From the IMG/VR virus record IMGVR_UViG_3300045988_086091: DNA of 44,722 nucleotides. The stretch is one strand, 5' to 3'. The DNA is from a virus. This document shows, one piece after another, positions 161-39,317 of the stretch. A program made the translations under genes and the position numbers. How positions within the stretch are numbered: the first letter of the stretch is position 1; each line of letters starts with the position of its first letter. The notes under the pieces were generated by a model. The model had not been told where the DNA came from and searched no databases. It saw only the letters and a list, made by a program, of their open reading frames with translations.

Positions 161-270
161 AAAGAGTGATAGTCAGGTTTTGGGGTGACTTCCTCGGATT
201 TGGGGAGTTTTCTTCTCCCTGGCCTCTCAGAGCCCGTCAGAGCGCCGCAAGGCTGCACAGGGGAAAGTAT

Positions 271-1407
271 ATGCCCAGGACGCCTCTCGCGTGTCCTGGG
301 CCATCCTGGCCCGCGTGTGGCATTAAATTCATCGACCATGGGGAGGCGATTTCTATTCCGGCCTATAAAGACGAATTGCGGAATACCTGGTATGCATCCT
401 TCTACTACACGGACTGGCAGGGGAAGCGGCGGCTCAAGAAGAAGCGGGGCTTCCAGCGCAAGAAGGACGCCCTGGCCTTCGAGGATGAATTTCTCAAGGT
501 CCGGGCCCGGAGCTGCGACATGACCTTCCGGTCCTTCCTGGAGATATATCTCAAGGACATGGAGCCGCGGCTCAAGCAGAGCACCATGCAGAACAAGCGG
601 TATCTCTACGAACACCGCATACTGCCATTCTTCGGCGATCTCAAGCTGAACGAGATCACGTCGGCCCACGTGCGCCATTGGCAATCCGATCTGCTGGCGG
701 AGAACGTGGCGCCGACCTACGCGAAGACGATCAACAACCAGCTTTCCGCGGTCTTCAACTACGCCTGCAAATACTACGGCCTGGGCACAAATCCCGTCAG
801 AATGGCCGGCACGATAGGGAAGAAGAACGCCTCCGAGATGTCCTTCTGGACCGTTGATGAGTTCAACCAGTTCATCGGCCACGTGAAGAAGCTTCCGGCC
901 AGGACGGGCCTGTCGGTCCTGTTCTGGACCGGCCTCCGCATAGGGGAGCTGCTGGCCCTGGCCCCGTCCGACATCGACCTGGAGGCCCACACCCTGACCG
1001 TCCGCAGGACCTTCCAGACGATAGACGGGAAGGAGATCATCACGGAGCCGAAAACGCCAAAAAGCCGCCGGGTGGTGCCGCTGCCGGAGAAGCTATGCGA
1101 GGACATCAAGGCGTACATGGCCGCCCTCTACGAGCCCCAGCCAGACGACCGGCTGTTCCCGTACACGAAGCACTACTTCCGGCAGCAGATGTTGAAGGGC
1201 TGCCAGGCGGCCGGCATGGAGCCGATCAGGCTCCACGATCTCCGGCACTCCCACGCCGCCCTGCTCATCCGACTTGATACTCCTATCCTGCTGGTGAGCG
1301 AGCGCCTGGGCCACGAGGACATCGAAACGACCCTCCGCATATACGGCCACCTGTACCCCTCCGCGAACGACGAAACGGTCAAAAAACTGGATGATCTCAT
1401 GCGGTAA
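271..1407 (+). CDS. int: Tyrosine recombinase (phage integrase) with arm-binding-type N-terminus
   Basis: Lies in ORF 166-1407. Catalytic-region motifs HDLRHSHAALL and GHEDIETTLRIYGHLY. N-terminal YKDELRNTWYASFYYTDWQGKRR. Start is ambiguous: ATG 271, or ATT 355 lying 8 nt behind GGGGAGG. Confidence 0.9.
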   Translation: MPRTPLACPGPSWPACGIKFIDHGEAISIPAYKDELRNTWYASFYYTDWQGKRRLKKKRGFQRKKDALAFEDEFLKVRARSCDMTFRSFLEIYLKDMEPRLKQSTMQNKRYLYEHRILPFFGDLKLNEITSAHVRHWQSDLLAENVAPTYAKTINNQLSAVFNYACKYYGLGTNPVRMAGTIGKKNASEMSFWTVDEFNQFIGHVKKLPARTGLSVLFWTGLRIGELLALAPSDIDLEAHTLTVRRTFQTIDGKEIITEPKTPKSRRVVPLPEKLCEDIKAYMAALYEPQPDDRLFPYTKHYFRQQMLKGCQAAGMEPIRLHDLRHSHAALLIRLDTPILLVSERLGHEDIETTLRIYGHLYPSANDETVKKLDDLMR

Positions 1408-8340: not shown

Positions 8341-9530
8341 GCGCCCACCGCCTTTGTGATGGTGATTTTGCTGTTGTCCGTGACGGCCTTCTCCCTGGTG
8401 TCAATGACGATGTTGCCCTCTCCGTAGTCGCTGCCGGTTTCGCTGATCGCAAGATCGAAGTCCACGACACCGGGAACAGAGAGGATGACGTCAGGAAGGG
8501 TCATGTACCGCACATCGCTCCCGATGGTGAGGCCGCCGCGCACGTCACCGCCGATGTAGTCGATCAGCGCGGACTTGATACGGTCGTCCCCGTCCGCCGG
8601 ATAGTCCGTGTCAGTTTCCAGGTTGGACACCTGGATATAGACCGGGACCGTAGTCGGCCTGGAGAAGTTGATGTTGATACTCTGGCCGCTGGCGGCGATG
8701 ACGGCAATCGTGGTGCTACCGAATGTCTGGATACCGGCGGCCTTGCGCCGGAAGATCGCCTGGGCGATGTCTGCGTCCAGACCGCCGTAGACCACCGCCT
8801 CAATGCTGTGGGGAGGGAGGCCGAGGTCGTCGGTTTCGTCGGTGTCGTTCTCATAGCAGATCGCGGAGTACACGCTCTCGACGTTCTGCATGATCTCACC
8901 GGCGATGGCGTCGGCATTGACGCCGCCCGCGTAGTCCACCGACTGGTAGTATCGGTCCCGGAACTCTTCGTCGGTTTCCCGCCCCCGGCCTCCGTCGATG
9001 GCCGCCGGGTTAGAGCAGCTGCTCACGCCGTCCATGGGGTTTGTGATCTCCTTGACCGTGCCTGCGGCCACGTTGTAGTCGCCGCCCGTTTCCACGGCCT
9101 GGACGGGCAGGGTAACGGTTCCATCGTCCCCTATGCGCCCATCCGTCAGGACCGCATACTGGAGGCCGGCCACGGTGCGGACCAGGAAGCCCGTCGGAAT
9201 GGCCGTGCCTGCGGTGCCGGTAAAGACCACGTAGCCGCTCGCCTTCTGAGCTGGCAGCAGGCTCAGGCCGATTGCCTTCCCCAGGTTGTATAGGCTCGTG
9301 CCTACCGCCGTGTCGATAAACCGGCTGTTGTAGACGTCCTCCATGAGGCTGAACAGGATATTCAACATCCATGCGAAAATCCGAAGGAAGATCCCCAGGG
9401 GGGACCGGACCGTTAGGTTTGCCTTGCTACCGAACAGCTCCCGCGCTTTGTATTCGATGGCGTCCAGCAGCTCAACATAGGTGGGGCGATGGAAGCCACG
9501 CTCGGTTACACCCCACTCCTGATCGTTCAT
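8337..9530 (-). CDS. Baseplate J-like protein (Mu gp47 / XkdT)
   Basis: 397 aa. Position and size fit the conserved W-J-I gene order. Confidence 0.75.
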   Translation of the reverse strand: MNDQEWGVTERGFHRPTYVELLDAIEYKARELFGSKANLTVRSPLGIFLRIFAWMLNILFSLMEDVYNSRFIDTAVGTSLYNLGKAIGLSLLPAQKASGYVVFTGTAGTAIPTGFLVRTVAGLQYAVLTDGRIGDDGTVTLPVQAVETGGDYNVAAGTVKEITNPMDGVSSCSNPAAIDGGRGRETDEEFRDRYYQSVDYAGGVNADAIAGEIMQNVESVYSAICYENDTDETDDLGLPPHSIEAVVYGGLDADIAQAIFRRKAAGIQTFGSTTIAVIAASGQSININFSRPTTVPVYIQVSNLETDTDYPADGDDRIKSALIDYIGGDVRGGLTIGSDVRYMTLPDVILSVPGVVDFDLAISETGSDYGEGNIVIDTREKAVTDNSKITITKAVGA

Positions 9531-22676: not shown

Positions 22677-24905
22677 TTACTTGTCGAACGTCAGGAAACA
22701 GTGGCAGTTGACGACCTCGGCGGGGTCGTTGCAATCCGGGTCGCAGGGCCGCATAAGGCCGTTGGAGAACTTGGCGTCAATGGGTACGCGCTCTCCGTTC
22801 AACCTCTTGTGGGACGGCCTGGCCGCTGCCATGTTGGCGACGTGCCAGGTCTTCCAGGCGGCTCCAGCCTTCCTCATCATGTCGTAGTGGCCGGTCAGCA
22901 GAGAGGTGTTGCACTCCTGGGTGGCGATGGTCCGCGCCCTGGAGGCCGTGGTCCCCATTTCCTGCTCGATCTGCTTTGCAATCGTGGCCCGGCTGTCGCC
23001 GTGCTCCAGGCCGGTAGAAACAATGCGGGCGATGGACTGCTGGGTGGTCTGAGTGATACCCTTGACGCGGACGCCGCCCCGGAGCTTCGCCGTGCTGATG
23101 AGCTCCGGCCTCTGGATGGCCTGGAGGTTGTAGAGCTTCGCGGAGAGGCCCGCGCCCTTGTCGTAGCTTTCCTTCCACAGGGGTTCAAAGATGTTCAGCA
23201 GCGACGTTTCCTCCTGGGGCCAGTCGATCAGGCCCAGGGTGAAGCCGGACACCAGGCGCTCCCGCTCTGCTTCCGAGAGGGCCGCCCAGGCCGCCGCGCT
23301 CTGCTCCGCGGCGTCTTCGCTGTTCGGGTCATAGCCAGGGATGGAGGACATCAGAATGTCCCACACGCTCCGGTCGTCCTTCGTGGTGCCGCCCATGGCC
23401 TCGCTCACTCGGCGGCCCTGCTCCCGCAGGTACTTGAGGGTCGCAATCTCGAATTTGTGGGTCTGGTCCCGCTCCGCCTGCAATAGGGCCCGCTGGGCAG
23501 CCTGGACGCGCAGGTCCTTGAGCTCTTCCGGCGAAGCACCCTTGGAGGAAGTGATTTCAACCGTCCCTGCGCCCTCTCCGGCGCTTTCTGAGCCGTTTTC
23601 AGCGTCCAGGGGTATCCCATCATCCGTGATCTCGATTTCCTGCTCTCCGCCCGTCTCAAGCGGTGGTGCGCCCTCTGAGAACTGGAGGTTTGCAGCAGCG
23701 GTAGAGATCGCCACGGGGTCGTCATCCTCGTGCAGGTAGACGTCGGAGAACTGCGTCTTGTAGACGTCGCCGCCGACCTTGGCCGGGGGCATACCCAGCT
23801 TCTCGCGGGCCTCATCCTTGGTGAGCAGGCCGGCGTTCCAGCCGTCGATACCCACGGCCTTGTCGAACTCTTGGTTCCGCGGGATGATGTCGTTGAAGCG
23901 CCACACCAGGTCCGGCCCGAAATAGGGGATGATCTGGTGATTGATCGCCTCTTCCCGGCGGCGCAGGTTCGGCATGAGTACGTTTTGAGCGTAGATGAAC
24001 TGGGCCGCCTCGCTGGTGGCCCGGTTACTACTCTCAGTAATGCCCATGATCTCCCGCGGCACGCCAAAATGCTCCAGGACGGCGTTTCGGAGGAAGGTCC
24101 GGCCATTCACCATGTCCATGTCCTTCATCGTTTCGCCGATCTTATTCACGGTCACGTCGCCGTTGACGGTGGCGACGCCGTGGCTCTGGAACATACCCCG
24201 GAACCGCTCAAGCCATTCCGCCCGGAACCGCTTCCGCTGGTCCTCGGTGCTCTTCGGCATGGATATAATCAGGTTCGGGGTGGCGTCGTTGAAGAAGAAG
24301 CGCTTCTGGAATTTCGCGGCGTACTCATCGGTTTCGATCTCATCCGCCAGGGCCTCAGACTGGCCCAGTCCGCGCTTGAACGGGTCCAGCGGGTTCAAAT
24401 CCTTCATCACGAACATATCGTCAACGGAAACATTCATCAGAAGGCCGTTGGTGAGCCGGACCGTGTAGTACGGGTGATCCTGGTACGGGGTCATCTGGAC
24501 CCAATGCGTCGGGACCGGCCAGAGCTCCGCCGGGATACCGAGCGCCGTCTTCTCGATGATGAAATATCCCTCGCCCTTGAGCTTGAGGTAAATCTCCAGG
24601 AGGCGCCACAGGGCAGCGTTGCTCATCTCGTGGAGAGGGTTCGGGTTCGCCCAGAAGTCGAGGAATGGGTGGGCGGTGAGCTCGTGCTCTTCTCCGTTTT
24701 TGTCCACACGGTAGAGCTTCCCCTCGGCGAAAGAGAGGTCCGAGGCTATGCGCTCGATGACCGCGAGGCGAGGGATCGATCTGTACGCCTCAATCCATTC
24801 CTGGGTGTTCCTCTCAGGCGGGTTTGTCCAGCGGGGCAGCATGATACTCTCGCTTTGGTACGCGCGGCTTGCACGCCCTCCGCCGCCCCTATTCCAAAAA
24901 GGCAC
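22677..24905 (-). CDS. Portal protein fused to a Mu F / SPP1 gp7-like head morphogenesis domain
   Basis: 742 aa. N-terminal portion is HK97-type portal. C-terminal region runs from ARTIATQECNTS to VVNCHCFLTFDK (MuF-like). GTG start behind GGGAGG. Confidence 0.8.
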   Translation of the reverse strand: MPFWNRGGGGRASRAYQSESIMLPRWTNPPERNTQEWIEAYRSIPRLAVIERIASDLSFAEGKLYRVDKNGEEHELTAHPFLDFWANPNPLHEMSNAALWRLLEIYLKLKGEGYFIIEKTALGIPAELWPVPTHWVQMTPYQDHPYYTVRLTNGLLMNVSVDDMFVMKDLNPLDPFKRGLGQSEALADEIETDEYAAKFQKRFFFNDATPNLIISMPKSTEDQRKRFRAEWLERFRGMFQSHGVATVNGDVTVNKIGETMKDMDMVNGRTFLRNAVLEHFGVPREIMGITESSNRATSEAAQFIYAQNVLMPNLRRREEAINHQIIPYFGPDLVWRFNDIIPRNQEFDKAVGIDGWNAGLLTKDEAREKLGMPPAKVGGDVYKTQFSDVYLHEDDDPVAISTAAANLQFSEGAPPLETGGEQEIEITDDGIPLDAENGSESAGEGAGTVEITSSKGASPEELKDLRVQAAQRALLQAERDQTHKFEIATLKYLREQGRRVSEAMGGTTKDDRSVWDILMSSIPGYDPNSEDAAEQSAAAWAALSEAERERLVSGFTLGLIDWPQEETSLLNIFEPLWKESYDKGAGLSAKLYNLQAIQRPELISTAKLRGGVRVKGITQTTQQSIARIVSTGLEHGDSRATIAKQIEQEMGTTASRARTIATQECNTSLLTGHYDMMRKAGAAWKTWHVANMAAARPSHKRLNGERVPIDAKFSNGLMRPCDPDCNDPAEVVNCHCFLTFDK

Positions 24906-25092: not shown

Positions 25093-26529
25093 TTAGTCGA
25101 TGGTCCAATCGCTGATTTGCGGGTCATGCAGGGCCAGGGCCAGGGCGTCGCCCATGTCAGGGGACGACAGGCCGCGTTTCTTCATGGCCTCTTTCTTCTC
25201 AAGCTCGATCTTTCCAGCGCTGTTCACCACGTACTTCCGGTTGGAAAGCTGGCTGATCTGCTTATCGTCATACCAGAGCTTGAGGCTTTTGGTCCGCAGC
25301 GCCTCCCGGACCGCGCCCCACATGAGGCCGGTGCTGTTCTGGTAGTCGATGGGGTCATCGTCGCTGATCGTGCCGCCCTCTCCGCCAAAATGGCACTCCA
25401 CGATCTCCAGGGAGAGGGGTGGGGGCGGGTCCTCGCTGTCTGCAAAGAGGCGGTCCCGCTGGTCGTTTACTTCCTCTACGATCTGGTCCCGCAGCTCCAT
25501 GAGGCGGTCGAACACGCCGACGCCCAGGCCGTCGCAGTCAATCTTGACGTGGATTTCGGCCCACGGCTGTGCCAGAGCATACCGCTTGATGAGCCGGACA
25601 GCCTTGCCGCTCAGCTCCATGGTGTCGTTGTGGTGGTAGACCTCCGGCTGCTCCTGGAGCTTCTTGTCCAGGACAGGGGACAGCACGGAGCTGTCGTCGC
25701 CGTAGCGGGCGACGTCAATCCCGATGTCCACGCGGGCCGCACGCTCGATCTCAGGGGCCTCGGCCTCGCTGGCCCGCTCTGCCCACTCCATAGGGATGAA
25801 GCTGTCCGGCAGGGCCTTTGGGAACTCCCCAGCGACACGCACCCGGAAGACGTCGCTGTCCTCGCCAAACATATCAATGATGGTGTCGATGAACTGCTGG
25901 TCCACACGGCTGCTGTCCCGCCCGTCAATGTGCATGGCGTTGTAGAGCTCACGCGATTTGTGGTGGCTGTCATAGAAAAAGCCGGTGATCTTGGTGGGGT
26001 TCCCACACATCACCAGCTTTGCGCCCTCGGTGGACAGGGCGCCGAGGACAGGCTCGAATATCTCATCTCGGACGCCGGAGGCTTCGTCGATGATGTAGAG
26101 GACGTGCTCAGCATGGAAGCCTTGCAGGGCGTCCGGCTTGCTGGCCGTCCGGCCTACCGAGAACCACTCTTCGGGGTGGCCCCTCATGTAGACCTTTTCC
26201 TTCGTCCAGATGAGCTCCTGGGACAAGGCCGGGTTGCTTCTCAGCCATTTGGCGATCTCGGCCCACAAGATGTCCCATAGCTGGTGCTGGGTGGGAGCGG
26301 TGCAAGGTATCTTCGGATAGGGCCTGGTGGTGAGGAACCAGATCGCAAGCCAGCTCTCCACCGCGCTCTTCCCGATACCGTGGCCGCTCCGAACGGAGGT
26401 CATGGGGTACTTGGCTACGCTGTTCAAGATGGCCCGCTGATTGCTGTCCGGCTTCGCCCTGATAATGTCCTCCACGAAGTCAACCGGATTGTCCGCATAG
26501 TAGAGAATGGCGTCACTTGTCAGGTTCAT
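25093..26529 (-). CDS. terL: Terminase large subunit
   Basis: 478 aa with Walker A-like SGHGIGKS and DE motif YIIDEASG. Position after terS. Confidence 0.9.
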   Translation of the reverse strand: MNLTSDAILYYADNPVDFVEDIIRAKPDSNQRAILNSVAKYPMTSVRSGHGIGKSAVESWLAIWFLTTRPYPKIPCTAPTQHQLWDILWAEIAKWLRSNPALSQELIWTKEKVYMRGHPEEWFSVGRTASKPDALQGFHAEHVLYIIDEASGVRDEIFEPVLGALSTEGAKLVMCGNPTKITGFFYDSHHKSRELYNAMHIDGRDSSRVDQQFIDTIIDMFGEDSDVFRVRVAGEFPKALPDSFIPMEWAERASEAEAPEIERAARVDIGIDVARYGDDSSVLSPVLDKKLQEQPEVYHHNDTMELSGKAVRLIKRYALAQPWAEIHVKIDCDGLGVGVFDRLMELRDQIVEEVNDQRDRLFADSEDPPPPLSLEIVECHFGGEGGTISDDDPIDYQNSTGLMWGAVREALRTKSLKLWYDDKQISQLSNRKYVVNSAGKIELEKKEAMKKRGLSSPDMGDALALALHDPQISDWTID

Positions 26530-27028
26530 TCTGCTGCCTCCTTCGCTCCCATGCCTCGGAGATCACGTCGGCAAGGCTGCTGCTGGCGGCTTCGGCTCCG
26601 GTGTCCGGGTTGGTATCCTTTACGATCTCCGTTCGGTTTTCGCGCTCCAGCTTCGTAGCCTCCCGGATGAAGGCGACAAGGTTCTTCGGGTCGATGTCCC
26701 GCGGGTCCATCTCTTTCAGAGCTTGAAGCGCCTTCTGCTGCATTTTCATGGCAATGCTGATATGGCGGTCTGCCATCTGGCGGGCCTTCTTGACCGCCTC
26801 GGCGTGGGCCTGGCGCTGGAGGTCATTCTCGTAGGCTGCCACCCTTTCTACCCACTGGTAGTTGGCACTCCACCGGCTGATGAGCTGCCTACTTTTGGAC
26901 AACTGCTCGCTAACAAGCCGTTGACTTCGGGTTTCTCCCAAATTTAGGTAACACTGAAATGCCTCATACGCCTTTACGCTCTCGCCCTCTTGCCGCTCCC
27001 ATGGCTTCGTGTCGCTGCGTTTCGGCAT
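26513..27028 (-). CDS. terS: Terminase small subunit
   Basis: 171 aa with N-terminal HTH-like AYEAFQCYLNLGETRSQRLVSEQLSKSRQLISRWS. Overlaps the terL start. Confidence 0.75.
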   Translation of the reverse strand: MPKRSDTKPWERQEGESVKAYEAFQCYLNLGETRSQRLVSEQLSKSRQLISRWSANYQWVERVAAYENDLQRQAHAEAVKKARQMADRHISIAMKMQQKALQALKEMDPRDIDPKNLVAFIREATKLERENRTEIVKDTNPDTGAEAASSSLADVISEAWERRRQQNEPDK

Positions 27029-27060: not shown

Positions 27061-28044
27061 TTACTTAACAGCTATCCAGCCGCAGAAGTTGAGGCAGCGC
27101 CAAAACATATCCACCTTTCGGAAACCGGCGGTCCGCAGCAGGTCCGCATTCCACTCGGCCTTGAGCGGCGACAGCACATTTTCAAGGCTCCGGCGCTTCG
27201 CCGCGATCTGCTCTTCGGTGTATCCGTTTTCCCGCTTCATCTCGTAGTAGAGCTCGACCATCAGGTCGTCCATGCTCTCGCTGAGGATTTTCTCAACGAA
27301 GATCAGGGCCCCGCCAGGCTCCAGGCCGTCGTAGATCATCCGCAGCATGGACGGGCGGTAGGCCGTCGGCATGAACTGCATAGACAGGACGGACAGGACC
27401 AGGCTCGCCCCCTTCTTGAGCGGCAGGAAGCTCCAGAGGTTCCCCTCCTGGACGGACACTCTCGGCTCATCCTGGAAGCGATCTCGGCAGGCCGCGGCCA
27501 TGGCGGGGGCGTTGTCGATCAGCAGGAAGTCGTTGACCTCTCCGTACTTGGTGACGAAGGGCTCCACAGCCAGGCCGGTGCTGCACCCCACGTCTACGAT
27601 CAGGGTTTCCGGCTTGATGAACCGCTCCCCCAGCTCGTCGCCGATCTCTCCCAGCAGATCGTCAATATCGGATTGCGTGAAGCCGGTGGACAGCAGGTTT
27701 TCGCCGTCGTCGATGAGCTCCTGGAGAATGTCTGCCAGCTGGCCGTAGTCCCATTCGCCGTCCAGCTTGTTCAAGGCGATACAGAGGGCTTTTGCCTGGG
27801 CCTCCGGCATATCCACGACAACGGCGACCGTTTCCGTTTCACCGGCTGCCAGCAGCACGGAAAGCCTCTGGTGCCCGCCGATCAGGCAGTTGTCCCGGAG
27901 GTTCACCACCAGGGGCAGCACCAGGCCGTTTTCCGAGATACTGGCGTCCAGGGCTTTGTACTCCTGGTCTTTGGCCGTGAGCTGCACCCTGGGGTTGTAG
28001 GGCGCAGGCTTGATGTCGGCCAACTTAATTACTCGCGTTTCCAC
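27061..28044 (-). CDS. ParB/Srx-like N-terminal domain fused to a CmoA-like class I SAM-dependent enzyme domain
   Basis: GTG 28044 behind GGAAGGAG. N-terminal IKPAPYNPR...LIGGHQR. C-terminal VGCSTG, IDNAPAM, GLEPGGAL, KRENGYTEEQIAAKRRSLENV and FWRCLNFCGWIAVK align to E. coli CmoA as I recall it. Confidence 0.75.
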   Translation of the reverse strand: METRVIKLADIKPAPYNPRVQLTAKDQEYKALDASISENGLVLPLVVNLRDNCLIGGHQRLSVLLAAGETETVAVVVDMPEAQAKALCIALNKLDGEWDYGQLADILQELIDDGENLLSTGFTQSDIDDLLGEIGDELGERFIKPETLIVDVGCSTGLAVEPFVTKYGEVNDFLLIDNAPAMAAACRDRFQDEPRVSVQEGNLWSFLPLKKGASLVLSVLSMQFMPTAYRPSMLRMIYDGLEPGGALIFVEKILSESMDDLMVELYYEMKRENGYTEEQIAAKRRSLENVLSPLKAEWNADLLRTAGFRKVDMFWRCLNFCGWIAVK

Positions 28045-28073
28045 TTTTCCACTCCTTCCGGTTAAAAATGGGT

Positions 28074-28104
28074 ATAAAAAAGCGGGGCGCTTTCGCGTCC
28101 CGCT
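28074..28104 (-). terminator. Rho-independent terminator after the HAD-like gene
   Basis: 10-bp stem (28081-28090 with 28095-28104, one mismatch), then UUUUUU on the - strand. Confidence 0.6.
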
Positions 28105-28121
28105 GGTGGCCGGGTGTTCGG

Positions 28122-28586
28122 TTATCCAAATAGGCTGCACTGGTCGAAGGACGGAACCTTCACCATGCCCGCCGTCTTGATGAAGCGGTCATAAGGCTGA
28201 GCCTCAATTCCATACCGGGCATACATGGTCCGGGTCTTCGGGTTGCTCTCCACAGCGTAGTAGAGGCTCCCGGTGCTCCCGTGCTTCGGGAAGATGAACC
28301 GCTGGAGGGCGCTCTCCTTGAAGACTGGGGGCTCCCCGTTGATGTCGTTGAAGTACCACTCCTGGGGCTGCCAGCCAGTCTTCCGCTTGATGTTCTCCGT
28401 GGTCTGCTTCATCTGGTAGTCCGGGCGAGCCGTCACGATGATAACATAATCATCCTTGATCGCCTCGATCAGGTCGGCCCGGTATTCCTCGGCCTCCATG
28501 CGCCGGGAGAAGGGGCGAAGCATACGGGTTGTAGCTTGGTTTCCCACAAGGGTATAGTTGAGGTCTAAAAGACAAATCCGCTTCAT
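28122..28586 (-). CDS. HAD-superfamily-like hydrolase (tentative)
   Basis: N-terminal LLDLNYTL (DxDxT-like with Asn at the second Asp position) and VTARP motif. Confidence 0.4.
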   Translation of the reverse strand: MKRICLLDLNYTLVGNQATTRMLRPFSRRMEAEEYRADLIEAIKDDYVIIVTARPDYQMKQTTENIKRKTGWQPQEWYFNDINGEPPVFKESALQRFIFPKHGSTGSLYYAVESNPKTRTMYARYGIEAQPYDRFIKTAGMVKVPSFDQCSLFG

Positions 28587-29412: not shown

Positions 29413-29742
29413 TTACTTACCGTTTACTCCGTTGACCGCCGTCTGGAGCAGGAAGCCCAGGAGCTTCCACACCTGGTCCCTGATCTTGCCCATGCAGATG
29501 TCGCGGCCCACGGGCTCGCTGTAATTCTCCTTGCTGACACAGGCGGAGGCTTCCACGATCTCGAAGCCGTTCCGCAGCACAGCGCGGACAACGGTCGTCT
29601 TATCGCCCATGGTCTGGGTGTGGGTTTCCGCGATGAAGTCATCGACCATATTCGCCCCAATGCTGGGGGCAGAGGCCCCAAGGTCCTCGTTGACGTCCAG
29701 GGCCAGGTCGTTCAGTTGCTCGATGATCTCGTGCTTGTTCAT
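29413..29742 (-). CDS. N4 Gp49 / Sf6 gp66-family protein
   Basis: TTVVRAVLRNGFEIVEASACVSKENYSEPVGRDICMGKIRDQVWKLLGFLLQ matches the family pattern as recalled. SD GGAGG. Confidence 0.6.
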   Translation of the reverse strand: MNKHEIIEQLNDLALDVNEDLGASAPSIGANMVDDFIAETHTQTMGDKTTVVRAVLRNGFEIVEASACVSKENYSEPVGRDICMGKIRDQVWKLLGFLLQTAVNGVNGK

Positions 29743-30284
29743 GGTGTTTCCTCCTTGATGTTTATTCCCTCCAGGAAGAGCAGCACGCCGGGGCCGCCTA
29801 TGCGGACCTCGAAGGGCGCCGCCTCCTGGGGCGTCATGTACTTGTGCCCGTATCGGGCCTTCATGTCCCGCCAGACCTCCCATGGTATCCGGTAGAAGCC
29901 CACCGAGCCGAAAGAGCAGAGGACGAAGGCCAGCGCTCCGAACTGGTGCGCCCTCTCCAGGCGGTCGGCCTGATCTGGTGTCACGCGGTCCTGGTTCATT
30001 CTCTCGGTGTCGGTGTACTTCGCCTCGAAGTTGACCGCCCGGCCCCCGAACAGGAAGCCCTTGTAGTCTGCCTGGGCGGTGCTGACGTAGTGGGCGATGA
30101 ACTTCCCGCCGCCCAGGTCCTTGGTCGGCTGCATGGGCTCCGGCGTCTTCTCGATGTCCGCAATCTGACGGAGCCGGTAAAAGTCGCAGGCCCCGTTTAT
30201 CATCTGCTCAAAGAAGGCACCCTGAGCCCGGTTCTTGCGGTTCTGGTATCTGAGGGCGGCCCTGGCCCTCTCGCTCGGTGTCAT
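29739..30284 (-). CDS. recU: Holliday junction resolvase RecU
   Basis: Motifs GAFFEQMI, ADYKGFLFGGRAVNFEAK and HQFGALAFVL. SD GGGAGGAAG. Confidence 0.75.
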   Translation of the reverse strand: MTPSERARAALRYQNRKNRAQGAFFEQMINGACDFYRLRQIADIEKTPEPMQPTKDLGGGKFIAHYVSTAQADYKGFLFGGRAVNFEAKYTDTERMNQDRVTPDQADRLERAHQFGALAFVLCSFGSVGFYRIPWEVWRDMKARYGHKYMTPQEAAPFEVRIGGPGVLLFLEGINIKEETP

Positions 30285-30639: not shown

Positions 30640-30920
30640 GCCTCGCCCTCGGCTTCTGGCAGGAAGCCACGGCAACGTGCGAGCGTCTTCATTTTGCGGA
30701 TGGTCTGATCGCTCACGCGGATACCGTCTTCTCGGCGGATACCGAGCTCGACCAGGAAGTCGTTGATGATCTCTTCCTTGGTGGGGCCCGCCGGACGCTG
30801 GCCGGCGGCCAGGCTGTCCAGATATTCGCAGAGCTGGGCGTCGGTCATCTTGCGGACCCTGATCGCCCGTTCGTGCTGTTCCTGCTCAAAGTCAGTCCTT
30901 CGGCAGCTTCGCTTCTTCAT
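30636..30920 (-). CDS. Hypothetical 94-aa protein
   Basis: ATG 30920 behind GGAGAAAGGAG, ATGA-coupled to the upstream gene. Confidence 0.55.
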   Translation of the reverse strand: MKKRSCRRTDFEQEQHERAIRVRKMTDAQLCEYLDSLAAGQRPAGPTKEEIINDFLVELGIRREDGIRVSDQTIRKMKTLARCRGFLPEAEGEA

Positions 30921-31664
30921 GTGCTGTTTCTCTCCTTTCTCCTGGGGCACCAGGGCGGCGAAGATCGGGTGTAGCGGCCTGGCACCGGGCGGGCCGGGCG
31001 GTCGTCGTAGCCCTCCGCCTCCCATCCGATCTGACAGGCAATCGCGGTGCCGCGGCGTCCCTGGGGCGTTTCCTCCCGGTGCTCGCACTCCTTGCAATGA
31101 GGGACAGGGCCGGGGCCCTCTGGCATGGATTTCATGCCGTCCGGGAGCTCCCGCATGAGATCATCGCCCCACACAGGCTTGAGGCTGTCTTTCATAAAGA
31201 CCGCCGCGCCTGTGATCTTTGCGGCCTCCACGATCTTCTCCACCCATTCCCGTTTCGGCTGGTGGTATTTACTGCCCGGCCCCGTCATGGCCCCGACGAT
31301 GAGCCAGCGGACGCCCCCGAAACTTCCGACGTCAGGGTCGATGTCTTCCAGCAGGGGTTCAATGCTGAGGAAGGTGTTATAGCCTACGCCCTCGGCGAAG
31401 GCGGGCGCTCCCTTCCCGGTGACGCTGGTCCCGTACCAGAAGTTCGGTTCCGCCGGCAGCTTCCCGGCGTTGGCAAGATCGCAATAGCGCTGGGGGTTCT
31501 TCGTCAGGAACATATAGACGTGCCGGGTCCGGCCTCTCGCAGGCGTGCGGTGCAAACCGGGCGGTAAAGCGCCGGGCATAGCAGTATTCGCAGCCGTGGC
31601 GGCAGCCGGTGACGGGGTTCCAGGTGTGTGTCGCCCACTCTATGGCGGTTTTATGTAGGTTCAT
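30917..31664 (-). pseudogene. DUF5131 (phage Gp37/Gp68) family gene split across two frames
   Basis: N-terminal [25 protein letters not shown] lies in ORF 31377-31664. The remainder (FLTKNPQRY...FLSIEPLLEDI...WLIVGAMTGPG) lies in ORF 30917-31579. The junction is near 31525-31545. Confidence 0.6.
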
Positions 31665-35401: not shown

Positions 35402-38400
35402 TTATTCTATCGCCACGACGCTGCCGTCTTCTCCGGCGGTCACGACGATATTCTGGTTGAACCGTGCCTTCATGGTCGGGTCGTGAGAGATTGCCAGGAT
35501 ACGCATATTCGGGTTGCGGGTCGCCATGTTCAGCAGCGCGTCGGCATAGGCGTCCGTTCCGTCGGCGTCCAGGAAGGGGGGCTCGTCGATGAACAGCATT
35601 CCGAGCTGCACGCCCGCCCGGCGGGCCTTGACGTCCGCCAGGCCCAGGGTAACGGCCAGCGCGATCTTGACCTTCTCGCCGCCGCTATGGCTCTGGTAGG
35701 GTCGTGTTCCACCGGCCAGGGTGTTTATCCAGACCTCCAGGCTGTTGACGATCTGCTTCGTGGACTTCTGCTCCCGCTCGGTGCGGATGTCCACGGCCAT
35801 GCGCCCGCCGGTCATGGCAGCCAGAATATCGTTGCTCTGGCGCATGATCTCCGGCACGACGCCCCGGATTATCATGTACTGGATACCATCGAGGCCGAAC
35901 GCCTGGACCAGCGTCGTGTAGTCGTTGAGGGAGGCGGCGGCCTCTTCCACTTCCCGCCGGAGCTGGGCGGTCTGGACCTCCGCCTCGGAGATCGCGTCCA
36001 GTTTCGCCTTGATGGTGCCGCGCCGTGTGGCGCGGTCGGTTACTTTCTTCCGGCGGCTGTTCAGTATGGCCCGGAGCCCTTCTGGGTTCCCCTGGGCCTT
36101 CGGGGCCCGCTGCCTGATTTCCTCGGCCTCCTGGTGTGCGGCGAGGACCTTGTTTGTCAAATCGTCGATCTCGGAGCGCAGCCGCTCAAGCTGGGGAGCC
36201 AGGGCGTCGGCGGTGGCCCCTGCCGCCTGACAGTCTGCCAGGTGCGCCGCGATGGGCTCTTCAATCTCGATGGTCTGCTGGGCCCTCTGGTACTCCATAA
36301 CCGCCAGCCCCAGGGCCGCCCGCTCGGCGTCGATCTCCAAGGACCGCTTCTCGGCGTCCTGGATGGTCTTCTCTGCCGCCTGGATGGAGGCGGCAATCTC
36401 TTCCACCTTCGCCTCTGCGGCAGCCAGGCGCGGGGTCTGGTCGGCCAGCTCCCGGTGCTTTCGCTCTTCGCGGTCCAGCTCAGAGAGCTCCGCCGCCGGG
36501 TCGCCCATGGCCTCGTCGGCGGCCTTGGCCTCGTTGTAGACCTTCATCAAGTCCTCATACCGTTGCCGGTCCTCCGCCTTGGTCTGCTCCAGAACCGAGG
36601 ACAGGTCAGGGATGGCGGCATGGGCGGCAATGGCGGACGTCAGGAATTTACAGGTAGCCTCTCCAGGGATGGGGCAACCGCTGTCGGCCAGCTTCTCCGC
36701 TTCCGCCTGGGCAGCCTTCAACCGGCTTTGCAGGTCGGCGATCCTCACGCGGCTGTCTGCCACGTGCTGATCGACCGCAGCCTTCGCCTCGTTCATGGCC
36801 TTCTCGGTTTCATAGGCCCTCATCAGGCGGGCGTGGGCGTCCTCCTTCCGGGCCACCAGGGCCTCAATCGCAGCCTGGGCGACCTCGATCTCCGCCTTCC
36901 TGGAGAGGATGGCTTCATACTGCCGCTGCTTCCACCGCAGGTCCACCAGGTCAGCTTCCGCGCTGCCGATGGCTTTCTCCAGGCGAGCCTTCTCCTTCAA
37001 GAGCTCCTTGTCCCGCTCCACCTGGGGGGCGAGTTCCTGGAGCTTTGCCCTGGCAGCAGCAAGCCTCTCGGTGGCCTCTTGGGCGGCGCTCAGGCCGTTT
37101 TTCATGTGGAGGGCATTGGAGTATTTCAGCTCCAGTTCTTCGCGCTCCTGGGCCTTCCGGTCCCTTTCGCGGTCATATTCCAGGCTTTGGGCCTCCTTCT
37201 CGCTGGCCTGCCGAAGTACCTCCTTGAGTAGGGCCTCGGCGCTCTCCAGGGCGCGGAGGTCCGCTTCTCCGACCTCGATCTCGTGGTTGAGCTGGTCGAT
37301 CTCTTCGGAGAGCACCATGTCGTTGTCCAGCAGATCGTCCTTCGCGCTGATCTGCTCCCCCAGGACGTTGATACGTTCCTTGAGGGCGGCGATCTTCCGG
37401 CGCTGCTCCGTGGCCGCTGCCTTGGCGATGTCCTCCATGCGCCCGTAGATGTCCAGGCCCAGGAGGGCGGACAGGACCTCCATCCGCCGGTCGCTGTCGG
37501 CGTCCAGGAAGAGGCCGTAGGCGTCCTGGCGGATAAGGGCGATGGAGCAGAAGGTATTGCAGTCCATGCCGAGCAGCCGCTCGATCTTCGCCTGGGTCAG
37601 CTTCATGGTGGTATCGCTTTCATCGGCCCACGCCTGGGCGTCCTGATTCCACCGCTGGAGGGCCAGGGTGCCGCGCCCGCTCTTCGTGCGGGTGCGAATG
37701 ACCCGGTAGTCCTGGCCGCCCATGCCGAACGTGAAGGAGATACTGCCGCTTTTGGTTCCGTCCCGGACCCAGCCGCCGATGTCCTCCTTGCGGGTCTGCT
37801 CATAGAGGCAATCCGCGATGGCGTCCATGAAGAGCGAGGACTTCCCGACGCCGTTCTGGCCGTTCACCATAGCCATGTGGACCGGCTCGAAGTCAAAGGA
37901 CGCCTCCGTGTAGCTCCGGTAGTTCTTCACCTCGATCACCTTCGGCATGAAGGCGCCGGTGTGCTTGCTGTCCTCGCGCCCATCGTCGGCCTGCTTGATG
38001 ATCGGAGCCGCCAGCTCCAGCAGCCGCGCTGCCTTCTCGCCGGTGATCTCGTTGGTGTCCAGCCAGCGGGCCAGGCACTCAGCCGGGCCGTCGTGCTCCG
38101 TGAGCTGGTCTTTGGCGTCCAGGGCCTCCACGTCCTCCGGGAATATCTCAGCCACATGGAAGGCACCGGCGGCGACAATCTGCTTCTGGAGCTCGGCACG
38201 GTTGAAGGCTTTCTCCTGTTCCGCCGTGCAGCTATACCGCACGCGGATGATACGGCCCTCCAGGTTGGCCGGCATACGGAAGGAGCCGGTGGAGATGAAG
38301 TCCGCGACCTGTTGGGAGTTCAAGCGGACCGTCAGGTGCTCCCGCTCCGGGGTTCGCTTGAAGGTGCTTACCACCCTGCCCTGGTCTATCTCGTGAATGT

Positions 38401-39184
38401 AGAAGCCGTGCTCCGTGCCCTCATCGTTGAAGGTGAGCTGGTTCGGGCTCCCGCAGTAATAGGCAGGCGTGTTGCAGGCGAGGCGCTGGGGCTTGTGGAT
38501 ATGTCCGAAACAGCCCAGGGTCACGCCCGCGGCGTCGATGGTGGCCGGAAGGACCACCACGTCCTGACCGGCCAGGAAGGTGCTGCCGTTGTCCGCCTCG
38601 CTCCCGCTGACCGTGTAGTGGGCCGTCAGGATGGAGGGGATACTCCGGTCAAGCTCCGTACTCAGGCCCAGAATGATGTCGTTGACAAGGGCGGTCGCGT
38701 TCCGGTTCTCGGTTTCCTTGTCCGCCCCAGGGCAGAAGAGGCGCAGCCGGGCTTTGTCGAAGCCGGGCACGGCCATGATCTGGACCGGGCCGCCGCCGGT
38801 GGAGATCGTTTCCACCTTTGGCTCGGTGTAGATGTGCAGGTTCTTGAGGTCTGCCGTCGCCTTGCGGATGACCTCGAAGGCGCGGGGGTTATCATGGTTC
38901 ATCGTCCCGAACAGCAGCACCACCGCGCCGCTGCACTTGCAGATAGGCCGGATGAACTGCTCCAGGGCGTCGTTGACGTCATCCAGGGCGGTGTCCGCCC
39001 ATACGCGGGACCTATTGAACAGGTCGCCCGCGATGATCGTCACGTCCGGCTCCGCGAGAAATGCCTCGTGATAGACGGCCTCCATACACCGCAGGGTGTC
39101 CAGGCGGCGCAGATTCTCGCCGTCCTTGGTGGGCCCGGCCAGATCGCCCAGGTGAATGTCGCCGGTGTGCAGTATCTTAATCAT
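35402..39184 (-). CDS. Fused SbcD/Mre11-like nuclease and SbcC/Rad50-like ATPase
   Basis: ATG 39184 behind GGAGG. N-terminal ILHTGDIHLGD...GHIH phosphoesterase motifs, Walker A GQNGVGKSS, a long coiled coil, signature SGGEK and Walker B LFIDEP. Confidence 0.8.
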   Translation of the reverse strand: MIKILHTGDIHLGDLAGPTKDGENLRRLDTLRCMEAVYHEAFLAEPDVTIIAGDLFNRSRVWADTALDDVNDALEQFIRPICKCSGAVVLLFGTMNHDNPRAFEVIRKATADLKNLHIYTEPKVETISTGGGPVQIMAVPGFDKARLRLFCPGADKETENRNATALVNDIILGLSTELDRSIPSILTAHYTVSGSEADNGSTFLAGQDVVVLPATIDAAGVTLGCFGHIHKPQRLACNTPAYYCGSPNQLTFNDEGTEHGFYIHEIDQGRVVSTFKRTPEREHLTVRLNSQQVADFISTGSFRMPANLEGRIIRVRYSCTAEQEKAFNRAELQKQIVAAGAFHVAEIFPEDVEALDAKDQLTEHDGPAECLARWLDTNEITGEKAARLLELAAPIIKQADDGREDSKHTGAFMPKVIEVKNYRSYTEASFDFEPVHMAMVNGQNGVGKSSLFMDAIADCLYEQTRKEDIGGWVRDGTKSGSISFTFGMGGQDYRVIRTRTKSGRGTLALQRWNQDAQAWADESDTTMKLTQAKIERLLGMDCNTFCSIALIRQDAYGLFLDADSDRRMEVLSALLGLDIYGRMEDIAKAAATEQRRKIAALKERINVLGEQISAKDDLLDNDMVLSEEIDQLNHEIEVGEADLRALESAEALLKEVLRQASEKEAQSLEYDRERDRKAQEREELELKYSNALHMKNGLSAAQEATERLAAARAKLQELAPQVERDKELLKEKARLEKAIGSAEADLVDLRWKQRQYEAILSRKAEIEVAQAAIEALVARKEDAHARLMRAYETEKAMNEAKAAVDQHVADSRVRIADLQSRLKAAQAEAEKLADSGCPIPGEATCKFLTSAIAAHAAIPDLSSVLEQTKAEDRQRYEDLMKVYNEAKAADEAMGDPAAELSELDREERKHRELADQTPRLAAAEAKVEEIAASIQAAEKTIQDAEKRSLEIDAERAALGLAVMEYQRAQQTIEIEEPIAAHLADCQAAGATADALAPQLERLRSEIDDLTNKVLAAHQEAEEIRQRAPKAQGNPEGLRAILNSRRKKVTDRATRRGTIKAKLDAISEAEVQTAQLRREVEEAAASLNDYTTLVQAFGLDGIQYMIIRGVVPEIMRQSNDILAAMTGGRMAVDIRTEREQKSTKQIVNSLEVWINTLAGGTRPYQSHSGGEKVKIALAVTLGLADVKARRAGVQLGMLFIDEPPFLDADGTDAYADALLNMATRNPNMRILAISHDPTMKARFNQNIVVTAGEDGSVVAIE

Positions 39185-39317
39185 GGCCTTTCGCCTCCTC
39201 ATCCTCTCGTTTCTGTGCCCTTGCACCGTCAAGATAGGCCGCCCAATAGCGGGCGTCATCAAGGTTGATGCCGCTCTCTTCCTCCAGCCGCTTTTCCGCG
39301 AACTCAATAACCGTCAT
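39177..39317 (-). CDS. 46-aa acidic hypothetical protein (below the ORF-track cutoff)
   Basis: ATGA-coupled to the SSAP stop. Its TAA overlaps the SbcDC start (ATGATTAA). Confidence 0.45.
   Translation of the reverse strand: MTVIEFAEKRLEEESGINLDDARYWAAYLDGARAQKREDEEAKGHD

Follow-up and report, generated by a model that had tools for sequence, protein, structure and literature searches.

The window, the 44,722-nt stretch of viral DNA that was analysed here, has a gene at positions 27061–28044 (minus strand) that encodes a ParB-like domain followed by a CmoA-like domain. The gene arose by a deletion in a four-gene cassette. It is best read as a recent in-frame remnant of this deletion that is probably inactive, and we give this reading a probability of roughly 0.8. 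The eye-catching domain fusion is a deletion scar, and to label it a "ParB-CmoA DNA modification enzyme" would be a mistake. The cassette is widespread and strictly syntenic in gut phages, and couples a CmoA homologue with an uncharacterised ParB-fused, methyltransferase-fold protein instead of CmoX.

The fusion gene and its surroundings

The open reading frame that ends at position 27061 (minus strand) has its longest reading, 359 aa, from a GTG at 28140. The GTG at 28044, the start given in the preliminary description, yields 327 aa and a stop codon. The homologous 203-aa ParB-like proteins begin at the same point (P0078; tblastn), and a Shine-Dalgarno-like sequence, GGAAGGAG (28051–28058, minus strand), is found 6 nt 5' of it. 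GTG 28044 is the credible start because of these two properties and because the reading from 28140 overlaps the 5' gene. The GC3 value is 0.81 for the fusion ORF and only 0.62 for a large overlapping antisense ORF, and the antisense ORF is therefore taken as spurious.

The N-terminal 120–140 residues are ParB-N-like. They match PF02195 with 23.7 bits, just below the Pfam cut-off of 26.3, phrog_620 ('ParB-like partition protein') at 4e-40, and Spo0J structures at 3e-6 (1vz0). The conserved GxxR nucleotide-binding motif of the ParB-N fold is present as GGHQR. Codons 1–140 (27625–28044, minus strand) correspond to residues 1–140 of an ancestral 203-aa ParB-like protein and encode the nucleotide-binding ParB-N domain and a helical segment; by tblastn these residues align to positions 28044–27625 with 99.3% identity.

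The C-terminal ~190 aa are CmoA-like. Codons 141–327 (27061–27624, minus strand) correspond to residues 45–231 of an ancestral 231-aa CmoA-like protein; this part still has the Rossmann core and lid helices α6/α7, but not the N-terminal 44 aa. Matches to E. coli CmoA (4iwn/4gek, E = 1e-29) and H. influenzae YecO (9e-27) are well ahead of the next non-CmoA methyltransferase (3e-12), and phrog_4752 is matched at 1e-63. The match to TIGR00740 (NCBIfam) is 8e-38 with 130.4 bits, under the cut-off of 193.3, and covers profile positions 38–239 only. The intact relative P0003 is also under this cut-off, with 163.4 bits. The fusion does not reach whole-protein similarity at the curated CmoA equivalog cut-off, but the match is still CmoA-specific. 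A Foldseek search with the model of the fusion has 4iwn/4gek as the best match (1e-15, 30–34% identity), with CysG/BelI-type enzymes close behind. Profile searches, structure prediction and Foldseek thus agree that this domain is CmoA-type and not merely a generic class I fold. The four segments on which the preliminary description had based its CmoA assignment (IDNAPAM, GLEPGGAL, KRENGYTEEQIAAKRRSLENV and FWRCLNFCGWIAVK) are present and align with E. coli CmoA, including WFQCFNFGSLVALK.

The presence of a ParB/Srx-like N-terminus and a CmoA-like C-terminus in one gene, as first described, is confirmed by profile and structure-database matches, and so is its location next to the terminase genes. 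It is directly upstream of terS (26513–27028, minus strand) and terL (25093–26529, minus strand). The small terminase is named by position only, directly upstream of the putative terL and of the portal gene (22677–24905, minus strand); position and size are the basis for terL, and precomputed Pfam matches on the 742-aa homologue of relatives for the portal gene. terS is 100% identical to its homologue in the related locus L008 and represents the right-hand border of the dispensable cassette. On the other side, the conserved syntenic block begins with a 154-aa gene (phrog_32036, function not known; 28122–28586, minus strand) that is intact in the window. Nothing relevant came out of Rfam, tRNA and repeat scans around the fusion gene. 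Between the 154-aa gene and the fusion start, at 28076–28105 (minus strand), there is a GC-rich hairpin followed by TTTTTT (gcgggacgcgaaagcgccccgctttttt). It resembles an intrinsic terminator inside an operon and was not listed by the consensus scan.

In its gene content the window resembles an almost complete temperate phage with a Flavonifractor/Pseudoflavonifractor-type host. A tyrosine integrase gene is at the left end (166–1407, plus strand), and the lysis, tail, head, packaging and replication genes are all on the minus strand. A 1,301-aa ORF (35402–39307, minus strand) has an N-terminal calcineurin-like phosphoesterase (SbcD/Mre11-like) and an SMC/AAA_23 ATPase (SbcC/Rad50-like) in one polypeptide. 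Upstream of the cassette in relatives, a Tad2-like gene (PF11195, anti-Thoeris family) alternates with a Phage_gp49_66 gene at one position, around 5842–6315 in L005, L006, L009 and L012, which corresponds to 29413–29883 in the window. The window has the gp49_66-type variant, as judged by nucleotide alignment to L007, L008 and L010.

Deletion within a four-gene cassette

The closest relatives in the protein search are two separate proteins and not fusions: P0078 (203 aa), which is 99% identical over the shared part, and P0003 (231 aa), which is 94% identical. The window is collinear by blastn with loci L005–L010, with 96–98% identity on either side of a 2,525-bp gap. The segment absent from the window is positions 8421–10945 of L008 (2,525 bp). 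In the blastn alignments the two flanks overlap by 14 nt (window 27625–27638). The deletion junction, at 27625–27635 (minus strand), is a microhomology, AGCTGGGGGAG, which appears as GAGCTGGGGGAG in the ParB gene of relatives and as AAGCTGGGCGAG in their cmoA. The consensus is AGCTGGGnGAG with G or C at the variable base, AGCTGGG(G/C)GAG, i.e., 11 nt with one mismatch. The window has GACGAGCTGGGGGAG followed by CGGTTC; in relatives, GAGCTGGGGGAG is followed by GATGAG in the ParB gene and AAGCTGGGCGAG by CGGTTC in cmoA. The deletion is in frame and joins ParB residues 1–140 to CmoA residues 45–231. The ParB C-terminal domain, a second ParB gene, a 519-aa gene and the CmoA N-terminus are lost. 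The 2,525 bp were lost by illegitimate recombination at the 11-nt microhomology, which linked codon 140 of the first ParB gene to cmoA codon 45.

The N-terminus that is found only in the split-form CmoA is homologous to residues 17–51 of bacterial CmoA. This shows that the split genes are ancestral and the fusion is derived. The opposite order, an ancestral fusion with split genes produced by insertion, is rejected on the basis of this match. Codons of the CmoA part have 0–1 nonsynonymous differences from L005–L010, and the deletion is therefore considered recent; with so few changes, a test for relaxed selection after the deletion is uninformative.

Four separate genes upstream of terS are found in at least 15 related prophage loci, the closest being 96–98% identical to the window. 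The order is the 154-aa gene, a ParB-like gene of 203 aa, a ParB-like gene of 224–225 aa, the 519-aa gene, the CmoA-like gene of 231 aa, terS, terL and portal, and the start of cmoA overlaps the stop of the 519-aa gene by 4 nt. The intact cassette is present in L001–L002 and L005–L010, which are human gut metagenome contigs, with the same order in all. The block that extends from the 154-aa gene through terS is also intact in divergent phages with other portal/terminase types (L017, L018 and L020), and in loci from Flavonifractor/Pseudoflavonifractor genomes (L022–L025), including the isolate Pseudoflavonifractor sp. Marseille-P3106 (LT827125.1). The host of the window phage is likely of this clade, since the intact block occurs in these genome assemblies and the 60% GC of the window fits.

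The 519-aa protein (phrog_5475, function not known, 1e-183; L008 9272–10831) is the most conserved product of the cassette, with identities of 59–92%, and 59–70% in L017, L018 and L020. Its gene is found in L001, L005–L010 and L017–L025, always immediately upstream of the cmoA homologue and overlapping it. Members in metagenomes number in the thousands, with no annotation that goes beyond 'ParB N-terminal domain-containing protein', and VDFGAG and FNSVPF are among the invariant motifs. The AlphaFold2 model (pLDDT 87.6) displays two ParB/Noc-like N-terminal regions and a C-terminal class I SAM-methyltransferase fold. In structure searches this fold matches only generic small-molecule methyltransferases, and not CmoB or DNA methyltransferases. 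Pfam gives weak matches to ParB_N and Methyltransf_23 only, and there is no match in a PDB sequence search or in NCBIfam. The class I fold is seen in the predicted structure only. According to the preliminary description, no CmoB-like partner is visible in the window, and this fits the window ORFs that were scanned, among which no other methyltransferase turned up; the only candidate transferase, the 519-aa protein, was in the deleted segment, which explains the missing partner.

Deletions in the cassette are recurrent. The metagenomic proteins that were fetched reveal at least 17 other in-frame junction classes in which the 154-aa gene, either ParB gene or the 519-aa gene is joined inside cmoA, a count that comes from protein searches and is biased to in-frame chimeras (P0002, P0007–P0014, P0019, P0027, P0049, P0062, P0073, P0082, P0087, P0092, P0095, P0104, P0110 and P0238). 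All junctions retain the 3' end of cmoA next to terS. For example, P0019 consists of residues 1–219 of the 519-aa protein and CmoA residues 78–231, and proteins of the P0007/P0012 type have only the last 73 aa of CmoA left. The breakpoints are scattered, which argues for chimeras that are accidental products of cassette loss over an architecture under selection, and since some keep only the last 73 aa, an intact CmoA domain is not preserved in them. The cassette appears to be a hotspot of deletion. The many independent deletions could reflect counter-selection, e.g., by modification-dependent restriction. Elsewhere in the window, the DUF5131 (Gp37/Gp68-like) gene (30917–31664, minus strand) is missing 265 bp relative to 337-aa homologues in L007 and L008. 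This deletion is at a CCCGG microhomology with a junction near 31522–31523, and the resulting frameshift leaves ORFs of 95 aa and 220 aa. A second microhomology deletion fits a prophage that is shedding accessory genes.

Probable inactivity of the chimera and other readings

The deletion takes out the residues equivalent to positions 1–51 of E. coli CmoA, including helix α1 and most of the lid/dimer helix α2. In E. coli CmoA, helices α2, α6 and α7 form a lid and the cofactor is almost inaccessible to solvent; α2 contributes to the dimer interface, Tyr39 makes a hydrogen bond to the methionine moiety of the cofactor, and Arg199 forms a salt bridge with the carboxylate of carboxy-SAM (Byrne 2013, PMC3663124). 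The ylide chemistry proposed for CmoA needs a hydrophobic, closed pocket (review PMC10491745). The Tyr39 equivalent, which the fusion lacks, is conserved without exception in an alignment of eight full-length CmoAs. These are the CmoAs of E. coli and S-B43, for which activity has been demonstrated, two further phage homologues, and those of four intact gut-phage relatives. Because the invariant cofactor-binding Tyr, α1 and most of α2 are lost, the chimera, judged from its sequence, is probably inactive as a carboxy-SAM synthase.

The ParB half is also incomplete. Residues 141–203 of the ancestral ParB (63 aa), which form its acidic linker and C-terminal domain, are deleted, and the C-terminal dimerisation domain of ParB-type activators is absent from the fusion. 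In the one system studied, a phage ParB activator of a DNA-modifying enzyme requires both its nucleotide-binding and C-terminal domains (O'Toole 2026, PMC13229309). By analogy with this activator, the loss of the C-terminal domain suggests that the fusion is probably inactive as a ParB-type activator. The fusion protein as a whole is likely to be inactive. Any carboxy-SAM-dependent modification made by the intact cassette, whatever its kind, would then have been lost in the window phage.

Several properties count against inactivity. The frame is preserved and the retained codons display no signal of decay, although this is expected anyway if the deletion is very recent. Most cofactor-contact positions are also retained. 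SAM-binding motif I (VDVGCS) and IDNAP, which has the Asp89/Asn90 equivalents, are conserved, and the Arg199 equivalent is kept, with KRRSLENV in the window aligned to K198-R199-SMLENV of E. coli. The contact positions kept are the equivalents of Asp62, Gly64, Ser66, Asp89, Asn90 and Arg199. The ParB helix that is now before the Rossmann core could partly replace α2. The AlphaFold2 model of the fusion has a mean pLDDT of 77, with values above 90 in the Rossmann core and 67–90 in the N-terminal domain, and with 37–59 in the junction helix and 58–73 in lid residues ~251–300 (α6/α7). The low confidence in the lid and junction, read from the fusion's own model, is only suggestive, and speaks for inactivity. 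Two contigs are on record with the same fusion protein, which hence persists in nature; this counts against the remnant reading.

An unlikely alternative to the remnant reading, and essentially the idea of the preliminary description, is that the protein works as a carboxy-SAM synthase tethered to DNA. Its ParB-N domain would bring the CmoA core to phage DNA or to the packaging machinery, and the cofactor would be used by a host transferase or an unrecognised phage transferase. The in-frame ORF with its good ribosome-binding site, the intact Rossmann core and Arg199 equivalent, and the high AlphaFold2 confidence of the core are consistent with this, as is the association of CmoA with ParB-domain proteins in other phages. 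In Synechococcus phage S-B43, the phage CmoA makes carboxy-SAM; CmoX, a C5-methyltransferase homologue with an SPPC motif and Arg350, makes 5-carboxymethylcytosine; and CmoY, an asparagine-synthetase-like amide ligase, adds glycine to give a glycine amide (Yang et al. 2025, PMC12783734). In the same study ParB-domain proteins are frequent neighbours of phage CmoA systems, their role not being known, and no N6/N4-type (non-C5) carboxymethyltransferases were found associated with CmoA. Other ParB–CmoA chimeras exist, and one of them, P0002, retains the Tyr motif.

Against a tethered synthase are the origin of the fusion by deletion and the absence of the invariant Tyr and of α1/α2. The best tblastn match to SpCmoX in the window has E = 7, there is no DNA_methylase Pfam match in the scanned ORFs, and a search with SpCmoY has no significant match in the window or in related loci. 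No other methyltransferase is present among the window ORFs scanned against Pfam or PHROGs. Moreover, the chimeras occur rarely and as singletons; their junctions are scattered, and at several of them the CmoA domain is destroyed. Intact 231-aa forms dominate, in far larger clusters of up to 1,060 members. The suggestion of a "DNA-directed" methyltransferase is not supported, as the fusion is no designed architecture but the in-frame scar of a 2,525-bp microhomology deletion. The other suggestion made at first, a carboxy-SAM-type cofactor for DNA modification, stands in part: such a role is experimentally established for a phage CmoA (PMC12783734), but the fusion in the window is a deletion scar. 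Phage carboxy-SAM DNA modification has been known since December 2025, so the idea is no longer new.

Less probable still is that the truncated CmoA core binds or consumes SAM as an anti-defence factor, by depletion or sequestration and independently of DNA modification. SAM depletion by phage CmoA has been raised as a possibility (Yang et al. 2025, PMC12783734), and motif I and the ribose-binding residues are kept in the fusion. However, the lost Tyr contact and partial lid should weaken cofactor binding, and the gene is in a late/packaging operon of a temperate phage and not among early genes.

An assembly or sequencing error at the junction, with the cassette intact in the actual genome, is very improbable: the window is a metagenomic contig, and the longest contig recorded for the fusion protein has the same length, 44,722 bp, but 11 nt with a mismatch is too short for a k-mer assembly join, the protein is recorded in two contigs, another deletion variant of independent origin, P0019, is seen in three samples, and there is a second microhomology deletion elsewhere in the window.

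The cassette compared with known systems

The four-gene cassette from which the remnant derives probably serves DNA modification. As a working guess from gene adjacency and fold, the CmoA homologue would make carboxy-SAM, the 519-aa protein would transfer the carboxymethyl group to phage DNA, and the small ParBs would be activators. The 519-aa protein is the candidate user of carboxy-SAM because it is strictly adjacent to the cmoA homologue. It is a tentative proposal that the cassette represents a second, CmoX-independent route to carboxy-SAM-dependent phage DNA modification, with the 519-aa protein as a new type of DNA carboxymethyltransferase. No description of the CmoX-less cassette was found in the literature searched, and it may be an undescribed carboxy-SAM-linked system. 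If the 519-aa protein uses carboxy-SAM on DNA, natural DNA carboxymethylation would extend beyond C5-cytosine enzymes. The window phage would then be a natural knockout, and natural deletion variants like it would be ready-made negative controls.

Bacterial CmoA (E. coli P76290, 4GEK/4IWN; H. influenzae YecO, 1IM8) is the best sequence and structural match of the fusion, which shares with it motif I and the Asp89/Asn90 and Arg199 equivalents. The fusion differs in that residues 1–51, including Tyr39, are absent, the match is below the equivalog cut-off, and there is no tRNA context. In this phage lineage, moreover, Asp117 is replaced by Asn and Asn132 is not conserved.

The CmoA of intact relatives has the same length as SpCmoA (231 aa) and matches it by tblastn at 1e-21 to 1e-27, but the identity is only ~29–31%. 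ParB-domain proteins are found in the neighbourhood of the CmoA–CmoX–CmoY system as they are in the gut-phage cassette. The closest annotated phage homologues, from Erwinia jumbo phages (~44% identity), adjoin an asparagine-synthase-like, CmoY-type gene. In contrast, the window and 15 related loci have no CmoX or CmoY, and the conserved neighbour is the 519-aa protein; tblastn with SpCmoX gives no match at E ≤ 10 in L001 and L005–L011, and none at E ≤ 1e-3 in L017–L025. Compared with S-B43 CmoA, the copy in the window has lost its N-terminus and is part of a fusion.

The ancestral 203-aa and 225-aa proteins share the layout of the phage ParB-like activators of O'Toole et al. (2026, PMC13229309), as judged from their sequences and the AlphaFold2 secondary structure of the fusion: a ParB-N nucleotide-binding domain, a short helical segment, an acidic linker and a small C-terminal domain. 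Like these activators, they have no obvious DNA-binding domain and are located in a cluster of DNA-modification type near the terminase. Unlike in that system, the partner enzyme in the gut-phage cassette is not a dioxygenase, and the ParB of the window is without linker and C-terminal domain.

Phage ParB-N–DNA methyltransferase fusions are represented by phrog_498 (633-aa 'DNA methyltransferase'), whose N-terminus is matched by the ParB-N domain of the fusion at 8e-35. As in fusions of this type, the gene in the window adjoins packaging genes. It differs from them in that the methyltransferase-fold part belongs to the CmoA type, which synthesises a cofactor, and is no N6/N4 DNA methyltransferase, and in its origin by deletion.
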